Positions 2,978 through 61,496 of a stretch of DNA of 64,000 nt are shown one piece after another. This stretch comes from a virus, in IMG/VR virus record IMGVR_UViG_3300036791_000797, positions 20,646 to 84,645 of that record. One strand, 5' to 3'. The position numbers and the translations under genes were made by a program. Under the pieces are notes generated by a model, which saw only the letters and a list, made by a program, of their open reading frames with translations, searched no databases and was not told the origin of the DNA. Positions within the stretch are counted from its first letter, which is position 1, and each line of letters begins with the position of its first letter.

Positions 2978-3708
2978 CCGGCCCTCCTCCTCCGCAGACC
3001 TCGGTGATCTACCGGATCGGCGGCACCAACTACCCCATGCGGGTGGTTCGCAACTGCGACACCTGCCGCTCGATCCACCGTGCCGAGATCGAGAACCTCA
3101 TCATCATGGGCTACTCCTGGGGCACCATCGCGGACCACCTGCCCACCGACGCCGGGCTGTCCAAGGACCAGATCCGCCGCCACTTCGAGACCGGGCACAT
3201 GCCCCTGCCGGAGTCTCTACGCCGGGCCGTCATCGAGCGCCGGGCCAAGATGCTGCGCTTGTCCACCGCCGACAACGCCGCTCCCCTGGTCGATCAGTGG
3301 GTGGTGGTGCAGTCCATCATGCAGCGGGGCTTCGAGCGCATCGCCACCGGCCTGGCCGAGCCGGACGTGAAGGACACCCTGGCCGCGGCCAAGGAGCTAT
3401 CCGCCATCGAGGCCCGTGCCCAGGGGGAGCAGGCCCTGGACGAGGACGCGGTGATGGCTATCATCGAGGGCGCTCGCTCCTACATGAGCCAGGAAGACTG
3501 GATCAAGTTCATGTGGGATTTGCGCGAGAACCCAGCCATGGGCATGTATGGGACCGTAGAAGAGGTCCAGGAGAGCCGGGTCCCATTGGAGCGATCCGGT
3601 CACACTGGCTTGCCGCCGGTCGATGCCAAGGCTGATTACAATCAGACGCACATGGGCTCATCAACCGATGAGATCCCCCCGATATCTGACCATGCCGAGT
3701 CTCTGTAA
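2974..3708 (+). CDS. candidate terminase small subunit (CxxC plus HTH)
   Basis: CDTC..R.EIE..I, HTH-like segment; upstream of TerL. Confidence 0.45.
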   Translation: MTGPPPPQTSVIYRIGGTNYPMRVVRNCDTCRSIHRAEIENLIIMGYSWGTIADHLPTDAGLSKDQIRRHFETGHMPLPESLRRAVIERRAKMLRLSTADNAAPLVDQWVVVQSIMQRGFERIATGLAEPDVKDTLAAAKELSAIEARAQGEQALDEDAVMAIIEGARSYMSQEDWIKFMWDLRENPAMGMYGTVEEVQESRVPLERSGHTGLPPVDAKADYNQTHMGSSTDEIPPISDHAESL

Positions 3709-20129: not shown

Positions 20130-20692
20130 GACCACACCACCTCCTTGCCGTGCGCCCTGGCGAACTCCGCCACCTCACGCAGTTGCGCCAGGCGGTCCTC
20201 GGTGTAGCCCTCGGGACGGCCGCAGGAGATGAACGTGGCGCAGCCCTCCTCGATGAAGGTCTCGGTCTCGGTGCCGGGATCGCCTACCGACATGACCTCG
20301 GCGGCCAGCACCCGGCCCAGGAACTCCTCGGCGTCCATGCAGCCGTAGGGGTCCTCGGGCAGGGGGCCGAAGGGGCCGTCAACGACGCGGGGCCGCAGGC
20401 CCAGGGCGGACAGGATCAGGATGGCGTTGCTGTTGGAGATGTTGAGTTCGGGGCCGCGCTCGGGGTACACGGCCGTGATGAAGCAGTGGCCCAGGTCGCA
20501 GAAGCCCTCCCGCCCGAGGTAGTCGCAGCCCACCAGGACCTCGGGGATGGCCCGGTTCAGGAGATCGTGCTTGACGTAGAACGCCTCGGCGTCGGCGTAG
20601 GTACCGAACACCGGGCCACGGTTGGACTCGCAGGAGCAGCCCACCCGGAAGCCGGTGGGGGTGCCAAGTTCGGAGTGGAAGGTAACGCTCAT
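20126..20692 (-). CDS. hypothetical phage protein
   Basis: promoter-defined start MSVTFH. Confidence 0.7.
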   Translation of the reverse strand: MSVTFHSELGTPTGFRVGCSCESNRGPVFGTYADAEAFYVKHDLLNRAIPEVLVGCDYLGREGFCDLGHCFITAVYPERGPELNISNSNAILILSALGLRPRVVDGPFGPLPEDPYGCMDAEEFLGRVLAAEVMSVGDPGTETETFIEEGCATFISCGRPEGYTEDRLAQLREVAEFARAHGKEVVWS

Positions 20693-20728
20693 GGAACCCA
20701 CGTTAGCAGGTTTCCTTAGAGGAGTCCA
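20693..20728 (-). promoter_or_regulatory. boxed leaderless promoter, copy 6
   Basis: TGGACT-cctctaaggaaacctgc-TAACGT-N7-ATG. Confidence 0.85.
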
Positions 20729-20733
20729 GTCGG

Positions 20734-21063
20734 CTAGTCGTCCCCGTTGTAGGTCTGGACCAGCAGGCTGCGGCCGATCATCTCGGTCCACAGGGCGTCG
20801 TTGGTCAGCCTCCTGGTCTTGGGGTAGTTGACCGGGTTGCGGTAGTACCGGCCGATGCGCTTACCGAGGACGCTGAGGTAGTCATAGCGCTCCCGGCGGC
20901 ACCGCTTGCAGCGCAGGCAGACGATGACATGGGCCATGCGGGCCACCTGGCCGTCGATGTGCTTGGGCGAGGGGTTCTTGCTCCAGTCATGAGCCCACAG
21001 CGCCTTGCAGGTGAGGATGTCGTCACCAAGCTCGGTGATGTCGGTGTACTCAAGAACGGCCAC
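20734..21063 (-). CDS. Zn-binding hypothetical protein
   Basis: C...H.W, CxRC; RBS GAGG. Confidence 0.65.
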   Translation of the reverse strand: MAVLEYTDITELGDDILTCKALWAHDWSKNPSPKHIDGQVARMAHVIVCLRCKRCRRERYDYLSVLGKRIGRYYRNPVNYPKTRRLTNDALWTEMIGRSLLVQTYNGDD

Positions 21064-21418
21064 GGGGTGCCCTCACTTGCTCGCAGATCCACATCGACCC
21101 GTCCTCGCCCAGTCCCACCTTGATGTTCTCCGGGAAGTGGAGCCCTTCGATGGGGGGCGGCAGCACCTCGTTCGGGCGCGCCACCACCGCAGGCAGCAAG
21201 GCCTGGGTCGATGCTTTGCGGGTGGCGTTGGGCCGACGCCCCCGGTGGTTGTACCGGGGGTCGTTACGGACCCGACCGCTGCGCCCACCCCAGATGTTGT
21301 GGACCTTGCGAAGATGGTTGTAGATGTTCTGGCCCTTGTATGTCCCTCCACACTCCGGGCACTGATTCAGGCCCTTCTCATGGAAGTTCTCAACGGCTCC
21401 GTTGTGTTGGTTTGTCAT
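21050..21418 (-). CDS. C2H2 zinc-finger protein
   Basis: CPECG...HLRKVH; start approximate. Confidence 0.6.
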   Translation of the reverse strand: MTNQHNGAVENFHEKGLNQCPECGGTYKGQNIYNHLRKVHNIWGGRSGRVRNDPRYNHRGRRPNATRKASTQALLPAVVARPNEVLPPPIEGLHFPENIKVGLGEDGSMWICEQVRAPRGRS

Positions 21419-59810: not shown

Positions 59811-60202
59811 GCCACGCCCTAGCTGTGCAGGCCCAGTTCGGCCCCATGGGGAAAGGCTCAGACGAAACCTGGGCACTCCTCCTGGTGGTCGACTGGATCG
59901 CACCGGAAGACCGAGCCGAGGGGATGAGTGCCCGGTATGACCTGGGCACTGCCACCATCATCCGTACCGGCCTGGAGTCCTTCAAGGAGCCAGTCCAGTT
60001 CCCCGTCTACCGCACCCGTGGCAAGCACCACGGCAGCGGCTGGGACTGGTGGCGACTCGCAGAAAATGTTGCCGACTTCCTCAACGGGGAGGCCGACAAG
60101 GTGGGGCGTGAGCCTCTCCAGGTAGTCCGCATCAAGGACATCGACAACACCCTCCTGGGATCGTGGGAGATGTGGGAGCAGACTTACGGGGGCAGGCCAT
60201 GA
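59807..60202 (+). CDS. hypothetical protein
   Basis: ATGA overlap. Confidence 0.6.
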   Translation: MSHALAVQAQFGPMGKGSDETWALLLVVDWIAPEDRAEGMSARYDLGTATIIRTGLESFKEPVQFPVYRTRGKHHGSGWDWWRLAENVADFLNGEADKVGREPLQVVRIKDIDNTLLGSWEMWEQTYGGRP

Positions 60203-60525
60203 TCAAGTTCGATGAGGACATTCACTGCCATGGCTGCGCTGGCCTGGGTGAGCATCCCCGCACTGAAAGGCCCTGCCCAGTCTGTGAGGGCACCGGCTAC
60301 AAGGCGATCCAGGTGGGCTATAGCCCCAGGTCTACTGAGCACGTCATCCTGCCTGGAGTCCTCCCAGCACGCCCTGGAAGGCCCTACAGCGCCCCTGTAC
60401 AGACAGCATGTGGCAGGAGGCTATCCGGCCTGCTGGACTCCTCTTGGGTCCAACCAGAGGCCGCTCAGAGGCGGGTGGATTGCCGAGGCTGCACCCGGTA
60501 CCTTCAGGGACTCCTCAGAAAATAA
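60199..60525 (+). CDS. Zn-finger hypothetical protein
   Basis: two CxxCxGxG repeats; ATGA overlap. Confidence 0.55.
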   Translation: MIKFDEDIHCHGCAGLGEHPRTERPCPVCEGTGYKAIQVGYSPRSTEHVILPGVLPARPGRPYSAPVQTACGRRLSGLLDSSWVQPEAAQRRVDCRGCTRYLQGLLRK

Positions 60526-60572
60526 TCGCATAGATGCCAACACATGTCTGTGCGATGCTGTATACTGATCCT

Positions 60573-60830
60573 TGTTGGCAGCACATTGAAAACCTGGGAC
60601 TGCGGAGGTGCCTCGCAAGTAACCCTATGAACCTGGCCTGACGGTTAACGACCACCAGCCCGTTGAGAATGCGGGCGGACCCCTGAACGAAGCCAGTGGG
60701 AGGGCGAAATCTGCCGGGAGCGAACGCAGAGAACAGTCTGAAAATAGCCGAGAGTAACCGGGGAGGTGCATCGATCCGGGGAGGGTAGGCGACGATAGGA
60801 CTGGCCCAGGTCTTCAATGTGCTGCTGGCA
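60573..60830 (+). ncRNA. unassigned ~260-nt structured ncRNA
   Basis: -10 TATACT (60561-66) just upstream; 26-nt closing helix with G-U pairs; nested internal helices. Confidence 0.7.
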
Positions 60831-60863
60831 CGCAACCACCAACTACCGAGAAAGCTAGAGAAC

Positions 60864-61496
60864 ATGACCGAACCCCGCTCCGAGCTTGACAGCATCACCG
60901 TCACGCTCACCAACGACGACTTCTGGCGCATCCGTACCGCCCTGGCAGAGTCTGCCATCCAGCATCAGGGGGCTGCGGATCGCTGCTCCGGTAGCAACCA
61001 GCGCAGCACCGACACCATTCTTCAGCACGAACATGTCGTCCGACGTATGCAGGACGTAGAGGAGAAACTGGTCGCTGCCTTCAACGCCCCGCCCACCCGC
61101 ACGGTCACCCTGACTGACAGCGAGGACGCCGTGGTGATCGACTCGCTCGCCATCGTCCGTGACCGCATTCGTGAGATAGGGGGCGAGAATCCCCCCAACA
61201 TCATCAGTGCGCTTGACAAGATCAAATCGCTGATGACCCCCCGCACTGTTGGCCTTCGCCTGGAGGCCATCGAGGTGCAGCCACAACCACAGCCTGGCGT
61301 GAAGATCGGTCTGATGGCACCTGACCACGATGTGCCGATGGGCACCTTCACCAACCTGGAGGAGGCCCACCAGGCTCTCCAGGCCCGCACCGATGGCTGG
61401 ACCCTGGTCGACCTCGCTGAGGGGCCGAACGAGGGCTACATCATCGAACTGGTGTCCGGTGGGCGCATAGTCAGCCTGGAGGCGAAGGACCGATGA
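60864..61496 (+). CDS. hypothetical protein
   Basis: first ATG after the RNA; GC3-rich. Confidence 0.6.
   Translation: MTEPRSELDSITVTLTNDDFWRIRTALAESAIQHQGAADRCSGSNQRSTDTILQHEHVVRRMQDVEEKLVAAFNAPPTRTVTLTDSEDAVVIDSLAIVRDRIREIGGENPPNIISALDKIKSLMTPRTVGLRLEAIEVQPQPQPGVKIGLMAPDHDVPMGTFTNLEEAHQALQARTDGWTLVDLAEGPNEGYIIELVSGGRIVSLEAKDR

Follow-up and report, generated by a model that had tools for sequence, protein, structure and literature searches.

An uncatalogued family of structured RNAs in phages of Actinobacteria with a conserved self-complementary loop

The stretch of DNA analyzed here (the window; 64,000 nucleotides, nt) is the last 64 kb of the 84.6-kb IMG/VR virus record IMGVR_UViG_3300036791_000797, for which CheckV gives a completeness of 58%. 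On its + strand, at positions 60573 to 60830, it carries a 258-nt RNA gene (89 G, 65 A, 64 C and 40 U) that, judging from the lack of any Rfam match and from compensating changes among its relatives, is a member of an uncatalogued family of structured RNAs of actinobacterial phages. The gene lies in a gap of 338 base pairs (bp) at 60526 to 60863, which holds no plausible + strand gene and separates the open reading frames (ORFs) at 60199 to 60525 and 60864 to 61496 in an array whose genes are all on the + strand and abut or overlap each other. An earlier note, made from the letters of the DNA alone, had drawn attention to this gap in a tightly packed gene array and had proposed an independently promoted, structured noncoding RNA (ncRNA) of about 260 nt that belongs to no recognized family; the gap, the strand, the length and the structured nature of the RNA all agree with our results, and the fold is now backed by relatives. 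A search of the window with Rfam 15 returned 0 matches at the gathering score and none inside the element up to an E value of 10, and the same search of 34 member loci found only transfer RNAs (tRNAs) and transfer-messenger RNAs (tmRNAs) elsewhere in those loci and nothing on the copies of the element. ARAGORN found neither a tRNA nor a tmRNA in the window, in keeping with the previous view that the RNA is neither. The literature searched holds no description of the RNA; the supplementary alignments of PMC10690425 (2023), a catalogue of 8495 predicted IMG/VR motifs of 29 to 151 nt, may contain fragments of it.

Fold and covariation

The two ends of the RNA are joined in a long closing stem, P1, formed by 60573 to 60598 and 60805 to 60830. 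Its outer part (60573-60590/60813-60830) comprises 18 bp with three consecutive G-U pairs (60575/60828, 60576/60827 and 60577/60826), and its inner part consists of an A-C mismatch (60591/60812) followed by 7 bp (60592-60598/60805-60811), giving a total of 25 bp and reproducing exactly the 26-nt pairing with one mismatch and three G-U pairs that had been reported before. The stem score of P1 (55) was reached by 0 of 300 shuffles of the gap, which scored 27.3 ± 4.2 (maximum 47). The folding energy of the whole stretch was just modestly better than that of shuffled sequences (z of -2.10 on the + strand, equaled by 3 of 100 shuffles, and of -1.45 on the - strand), so that the single sequence could not decide the question.

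Relatives were found in IMG/VR with a 16-nt word from 60778 to 60793, which matched 13 stretches, three of which (loci L003, L004 and L005) align over most of the element. A strand shared by these three, CUGACGGYUAACGACCAC, was then used to scan IMG/VR and yielded 56 stretches. The covariance model R1 (257 positions, 66 pairs), seeded with the window, L004 and L044, gave 40 matches in 70 sources at E ≤ 0.01, namely the window and 39 IMG/VR loci, which amount to 34 distinct sequences. As the window is one of the three seeds, its own score of 287.6 bits (model positions 1 to 257) is not independent; members outside the seed score 62 to 217 bits across the full length. Of the 53 stretches with sufficient flank, 38, the model-confirmed members among them, also have a second motif, CCCTGAAYGA, no more than 220 nt downstream of the pattern match, and R1 gave zero matches among stretches that lack the second motif.

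A covariation check of the kind suggested in the earlier note, carried out on homologs from IMG/VR, revealed compensatory changes throughout the fold. In an alignment of the 34 distinct sequences (A5), 92.3% of the 1972 cells are standard pairs, compared with 58.9% when partners are shuffled and 34.0 to 40.4% when the 3' partners are slid by one to three columns. Double-sided changes are present at 62 of the 66 pairs, and the covariation score is 0.671 versus 0.165, with 0 of 500 shuffles attaining any of five measures. All 24 modeled pairs of P1 show double changes and 95.0% of its cells are paired; the helices of the 5' arm have double changes as well, except the two-pair helix 3, which varies on one side only. 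P2 (60600-04/60725-29), for example, changes from CUGCG/CGCAG to CCACG/CGUGG and to CCGAG/CUCGG in relatives. A stem finder that does not depend on the model recovered closing stems of 24 to 33 bp, of unrelated sequence, in most members, and double changes are already visible in a plain MAFFT alignment of the window with L003, L004 and L005. Another plain MAFFT alignment misaligned the closing stems, and RNAduplex applied to wide flanks gave over-long structures. Among the 1972 cells, G-U pairs outnumber A-C combinations by 139 to 55, as expected for an RNA that is read from the + strand.

The resulting architecture is a three-way junction in which P1 carries two irregular arms, with nine helices in all, each of them present in the window. 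The 5' arm (60600 to 60729) consists of P2, P3 (60608-13/60715-21), P4 (60623-25/60702-04), P5 (60632-37/60692-98) and the variable hairpin P6 (60655-63/60671-78), which gains 60 to about 190 nt in other members and thereby gives RNA lengths of about 255 to 440 nt. The 3' arm (60734 to 60803) consists of P7 (60734-39/60798-803), P8 (60747-49/60788-90) and P9 (60758-62/60775-79), with purine-rich internal loops GAGAGUAA / GGAGGGUA. P6 corresponds to a hairpin near 60658-76 that had been predicted from the single sequence; the five other inner helices of that prediction, comprising the pairings 60624-28/60795-99, 60636-42/60785-90 and 60642-47/60755-60 and the hairpins near 60601-17 and 60710-30, give way to helices that covary. 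A search of column statistics for additional tertiary or pseudoknot pairs found nothing convincing.

Two strands of the 5' arm are strongly conserved: CUGACGGUUAACGACCA (60638 to 60654) between P5 and P6, which meets the family consensus CUGACGGYUAACGACCA, and CCCUGAACGAA (60681 to 60691) between P6 and P5, which meets the consensus CCCUGAAYGAA. Because the first of these served as a search pattern, its invariance in the large set is in part a matter of construction; in three relatives found through an unrelated 3'-arm pattern, however, it is identical bar the one Y position. The 5' strand of P1 also contains a recurrent motif, the GACAAC box (GACAAC[UC][GC]A; scanned as [GC]ANAAC[UC][GCU]A), which is present in 16 of 32 members compared with 0.3% of control windows; the window has the weaker form GCACAUUGAAAAC, which also occurs in L003, L032, L061 and the group of L067. 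The presence of this box suggests that P1 is more than a clamp and that some factor probably reads it. Within the first conserved strand, UUAACGA at 60645 to 60651 (CUAACGA in most relatives) resembles an anticodon loop in outline, with a pyrimidine and a U ahead of three bases that are followed by a purine and an A; the similarity may be due to chance, and only two G-C pairs flank it.

The self-complementary 3'-arm loop

The apical loop of P9 (60763 to 60774), GAGGUGCAUCGA, reads GA-GGUGCAUC-GA, and its 8-base core, which we propose as a kissing site, pairs with itself through six Watson-Crick and two G-U pairs. Among 23 distinct members with a short loop that were aligned by the model, 22 have a 12-nt loop composed of GA or GC, eight bases, and GA or AA, and the remaining one (L034) has a 13-nt loop holding the 6-mer GACGUC. 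The eight bases are GUGCGCAC, GUGGCCAC, GUUGCAAC or GCUGCAGC, or GGUGCAUC in the window, L003, L044 and L040, and the expanded members have GUGCGCAC (the Bixzunavirus and Myrna types) or GUGCAC, AUGCAU or CGUGCACG. When a script required stems of 4 bp or longer, 28 of 32 members showed a palindromic hairpin loop, and in 21 of those the palindrome comprised 8 nt with Watson-Crick pairs throughout; among shuffled regions, 56 of 640 had such a loop.

The manner in which the loop varies is informative. Between the window and L004, loop positions 4, 5, 8 and 9 differ, representing two double changes that leave the 4/9 and 5/8 pairings intact. A single hairpin could not accommodate 5/8 or 6/7, with two bases or none between the partners, and the maintenance of these pairs argues for pairing between two molecules. 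The self-duplex of the window loop has a predicted energy of -12.1 kcal/mol, which was equaled or bettered by 13 of 500 shuffled loops, and the G-C-rich versions of the loop reach -16.5 to -17.3 kcal/mol. The loop thus suggests a homodimer held together by kissing loops. A second hairpin, whose loop has another 8-base palindrome, GUCAUGAC, was seen in L031 (Myrna 3225-3603), L039 (Phabba) and L038, and with two self-pairing loops chains or larger assemblies of the Myrna-type RNA would be possible.

The dimerization initiation site of human immunodeficiency virus 1 (HIV-1) has a purine-flanked, self-complementary loop core that varies between strains and stays palindromic. The HIV-1 site is part of a viral genome and has six core bases in a loop of 9 nt, whereas the small phage RNA has an 8-base core in a loop of 12 nt. 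Other points of comparison are ROOL, GOLLD and OLE, large 'ornate' orphan RNAs that have been studied by cryo-EM (10.1101/2024.12.08.627333 / PMC12286853). They share with the phage RNA an association with phages or prophages, an intricate fold and the lack of an obligatory protein partner, and are built to associate with their own copies, as the phage RNA apparently is; kissing loops also figure among the search terms of that paper. They differ from the RNA of the window in that there is no similarity of sequence or model, and the latter is much smaller (about 255 to 440 nt), belongs to different hosts, being found in phages of Actinobacteria, and would have a dimer interface only. The short RNAs that form cages or oligomers, manA among them (10.64898/2026.07.01.735769), are reported to be phage-associated as well and assemble as defined by intermolecular kissing loops. 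Those loops pair with different loops of the neighboring molecules (L5-L7') to give pentamers and cages, whereas one self-complementary loop would here give a two-fold dimer, and the manA-type RNAs and the window RNA are unrelated families. By these accounts, natural RNAs that associate with themselves have been demonstrated only recently, and a small RNA with a covarying dimer interface would be a simple new case. If the dimer is real, it would offer a first handle on what use such RNAs are to phages.

The pairing of both ends in a long stem is also a feature of Y RNAs and YrlA. A TROVE (Ro60-like) protein is encoded in all five cluster C mycobacteriophage records that carry the RNA, compared with 0 of 27 other carriers (0 of the 11 that are at least 90% complete) and none in the window's record, and the window element has no YrlA match. 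Beside the TROVE gene, three of the five cluster C loci have separate YrlA-like matches (L314:1166-1244, L318:1166-1243 and L315:2212-2278) of 31 to 37 bits against a gathering score of 69, and these are likely to be phage Y RNAs that have diverged too far for the Rfam cut-off. With TROVE confined to cluster C among the carriers examined, and with separate YrlA-like matches beside it in three of the five loci, a Ro60/Y RNA role for the element was rejected.

Transcription, proposed role and rival explanations

A -10-like box, TATACT (60561 to 60566), lies 6 nt ahead of the first base of the closing stem, and TATACT, TATGAT, TACACT, TACAAT, TATAGT or TAGGAT is found at the equivalent position in relatives. 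Overall, TANNNT occurs within 35 nt upstream of the element in 17 of 32 members (TATACT in five, TATAGT in three) compared with 7% of control windows. Two members (L067 and L251) have a promoter matching 11 of 12 bases (TTGACA-N16/17-TATAGT) ahead of the RNA and, behind it, a T-tailed terminator of 12 bp. The RNA therefore probably has its own promoter, the case for the window being made by the -10 box and by the relatives; the independent promotion proposed earlier is borne out to that extent, and a scan found no -35 box ahead of the window's copy. A hint of expression comes from the copy in phages of the Bixzunavirus type, for which contigs of 173, 261 and 276 nt lying inside the element were found in three runs from two studies, one run being recorded as RNA-seq and two being guessed to be RNA. 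The contigs are identical to that copy except for one inserted base, and the rest of the 2.4 kb examined around it is uncovered save for one piece at the far end, which hints at a short abundant RNA.

We consider it fairly probable that the element is a stable, folded, trans-acting ncRNA of phages of Actinobacteria, which would be transcribed from the TATACT promoter, would dimerize through the loop of P9 and would bind a factor through its 5' core. The transcript would start at the foot of P1, and the 25-bp P1 would either fix and protect both ends or be the site of a cut that frees the RNA from a downstream message. Head-to-head contact between their self-complementary 8-base loops, one in each 3' arm, would bring two molecules together, and this dimer would use its conserved 5'-arm core to act, most likely by binding and retaining a factor of the host or the phage early in infection. 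Action in trans is suggested by the flanking proteins, which are unconserved beyond close relatives.

Several points weigh against this picture. The A5 alignment was fitted to the structure of the model and hence leans towards it, and most members were retrieved by way of a 5'-core pattern, so that the conservation of this core is overstated. By the 4-bp rule of the script, four of 32 members have no palindromic loop, three of which carry the same palindromes on 3-bp stems when inspected by eye, and the palindromes could instead be sites for a dimeric protein. A simple scan of the window gap for promoters and terminators found no full -35/-10 promoter and no terminator, and the expression contigs concern the Bixzunavirus copy rather than that of the window and reveal neither the ends, the strand nor the level of a transcript. 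A start codon 34 nt after P1 is just as compatible with a 5' leader, and the binding of a factor by the 5'-arm core is a proposal.

Capture of a host factor is one conceivable use of a trans-acting RNA, and mycobacteria abound in tRNA-cutting toxins and other RNA-directed defenses. An RNA-only, two-fold assembly that is made early and presents two 5'-arm cores might serve as bait for such toxins or defenses, an idea that derives from the anticodon-loop outline (Y-U-AAC-G-A) in the conserved core and that we regard as a long shot.

The main rival to a trans-acting RNA is a 5' leader that acts in cis on the operon beginning at 60864. Such a leader might work by antitermination, by shielding the message from 5'-end decay or as a ligand sensor; antitermination is exemplified by the put RNAs of phage HK022, which make RNA polymerase resistant to terminators. 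Such a leader would account for an element that lies directly behind a -10 box and ahead of the start codon with no terminator between, and in many relatives a same-strand start codon follows a purine-rich stretch within about 15 to 45 nt, as judged by eye. The downstream genes are unrelated across members, however, and form no cluster beyond close relatives; at three of 32 loci the next same-strand gene is a tmRNA (L005 and L048) or a tRNA (L043), and in L067 and L251 the terminator stands right behind the RNA. Moreover, a self-complementary loop that is kept by double changes has no role in a leader, and the known leader elements of this kind are smaller and do not have so long a closing stem. 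With no constant class of downstream gene, the RNA was not assigned to riboswitches or other cis-acting leaders, and we think it unlikely, on balance, that it acts in this way.

The element could also be a ribozyme, self-cleaving or otherwise catalytic, with the conserved core of the 5' arm as its active site. The near-invariant unpaired strands at 60638-54 and 60681-91, framed by covarying helices, do follow the pattern of catalytic or ligand-binding RNAs, but no Rfam ribozyme model matches the window or the 34 member loci, neither a cleavage site nor a substrate can be named, and the expression contigs of the Bixzunavirus copy run unbroken through the core, making catalysis improbable. An RNA that binds RNA polymerase in the manner of 6S or Ms1 had been among the earlier suggestions, and the long terminal helix would suit it, as would a -35-like UUGACA seen by eye in the 5' strand of P1 in 6 of 32 members. 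That suggestion fared poorly: neither 6S nor Ms1 of Rfam gave a match, the fold is a stem with two arms rather than a long helix with a central bubble, and the invariant part of the P1 box is GACAAC and not TTGACA, so that we hold such a function to be very improbable.

Two further explanations, which we rate as scarcely credible, dispense with an RNA. One is a DNA site with an inverted repeat, such as a miniature inverted-repeat transposable element (MITE), which the earlier note had named as an outcome that would overturn its proposal: the element does contain a 21-nt inverted repeat (95%, arms 206 nt apart), and L002, a relative of the upstream gene, is without the element, but there is a single copy in the window's virus record and in every other record checked, no direct repeat flanks it, its arms are the most variable and its interior the most conserved part, the reverse of a MITE, and G-U pairs exceed A-C combinations. 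The other is a minus-strand protein gene, P0001 (ORF 60515-60958, 147 amino acids), which spans the entire gap, and minus-strand ORFs over the element also cluster between loci in BLASTP. Yet none of the minus frames stays open across 90% or more of the element in every member (the two best do so in 19 and 13 of 32), the P0001 frame is broken in the closest relative, L003, and 1-nt insertions or deletions separate close relatives; the open minus frames can be traced to the purine-rich, U-poor + strand and the clustering to conserved DNA. On the + strand, none of the 32 members has a frame that stays open across 90% of the element, although the Bixzunavirus copy has one that is open over 78%.

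Distribution and genomic surroundings

A search with BLAST of 50,697 GenBank phage records with the window element gave no match, and the link to mycobacteriophages was obtained through other members of the family. L042 as a query matched nothing. One IMG/VR member (in a 161-kb record) is the copy of Mycobacterium phage Tonenili, and the Tonenili element matches 205 GenBank records, 203 of them over at least 80% of its length and each in one place. All 205 are phages of Mycobacterium or Mycolicibacterium of the Bixzunavirus type, and diverged copies are present in Myrna, Phabba and ScoobyDoobyDoo. In phage Alice (L071, Alice 20548-21167), the copy, with the element at 20494-20897, underlies two annotated 'hypothetical proteins', gp60 and gp61, on the RNA's own strand, and the ORFs over the RNA in Alice and about 200 similar records are probably mis-annotations; the Myrna copy lies inside an unannotated 700-bp gap. 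About 200 laboratory mycobacteriophages (Bxz1/Alice/I3 type, host M. smegmatis mc2 155) thus carry one copy each, and in most of these GenBank records the RNA is annotated as one or two 'hypothetical proteins' or is unannotated, indicating that a widespread and strongly constrained RNA has been overlooked in a well-studied phage collection. As M. smegmatis is a genetically tractable host, the RNA is directly testable there. For the window, we suggest that the gap be labeled as an ncRNA gene; ORFs that overlie its relatives are doubtful.

The family extends into metagenomes, with at least 80 loci in Joint Genome Institute (JGI) metagenome contigs showing the same pattern, of which at least 34 match R1 and at least 24 match the full model. 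A pattern from the 3' loop gave nine new loci, two of which are members with altered 5'-arm motifs, indicating that the family is broader than the first pattern reveals; a pattern from 60691 to 60707 gave chance matches only. Carriers with a CheckV completeness of 90% or more have record lengths between 44 and 167 kb. A pattern scan of bacterial genomes found one member (L144) among the at least 80 loci listed, on a 126-kb contig of an Acidimicrobiales metagenome-assembled genome (MAG), and since its score equals that of the viral locus L018 it is probably phage DNA binned into the MAG. Under stricter filters, 150 further genomes of that MAG's phylum gave no match, and L089 (62 nt, 20.8 bits), from the scan of bacterial genomes, was taken as spurious.

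Among the 34 metagenome matches listed, 8 match R1 in the 5' arm only (model positions about 41 to 157), and in L219:1462-1610, L268:2221-2367 and L205:1250-1439 a helix of 9 to 10 bp appears by eye to close directly around the 5' arm. These may represent a shorter relative without the usual 3' arm, in which case the 5' arm would be the functional core. Some of the other matches of this kind (L223, L203 and L227) belong to full members that carry large insertions.

No protein neighbor is conserved across members, neighbors being common to close relatives only. In the window, the upstream gene (60199 to 60525, + strand) encodes 108 amino acids with a weak match to the CxxCxGxG zinc-finger-like family PF00684 (E of 0.001, under the curated cut-off), and the downstream gene, P0003 (60864 to 61496, + strand), begins with ATG 34 nt past the RNA and encodes 210 amino acids of no family. 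Four protein relatives of P0003 were found (P0004 to P0007), and no homolog of it was found in IMG/VR. The 10 proteins neighboring the window element, which were the ones scanned, include no Pfam match to a reverse transcriptase or other enzyme family. A retron ncRNA was rejected, given the lack of a reverse transcriptase among the window's neighbors and of a conserved neighbor in relatives.

The upstream gene has one homolog in IMG/VR (L002, 66% identical), which is not followed by the RNA. At the equivalent spot before its next gene, L002 has an extended -10 box, TGGTATACT (L002:3539-3560, compared with 60553-60566 of the window), so the promoter may predate the arrival of the RNA, or the RNA may have been lost from L002; this RNA-less relative also has an additional 62-amino-acid ORF.

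Linkage to tRNA or tmRNA genes, confined to the three loci named above, was rejected as a trait of the family. In two uncultured phages, the tmRNA genes (L005:10221-10616 and L048:284-609, both on the - strand of their loci) lie 400 to 850 nt downstream of the RNA on the same strand as it, and in L018 a T-arm-like sequence, GGTTCGAACCCC, which ARAGORN does not call, occurs about 70 nt past the copy.

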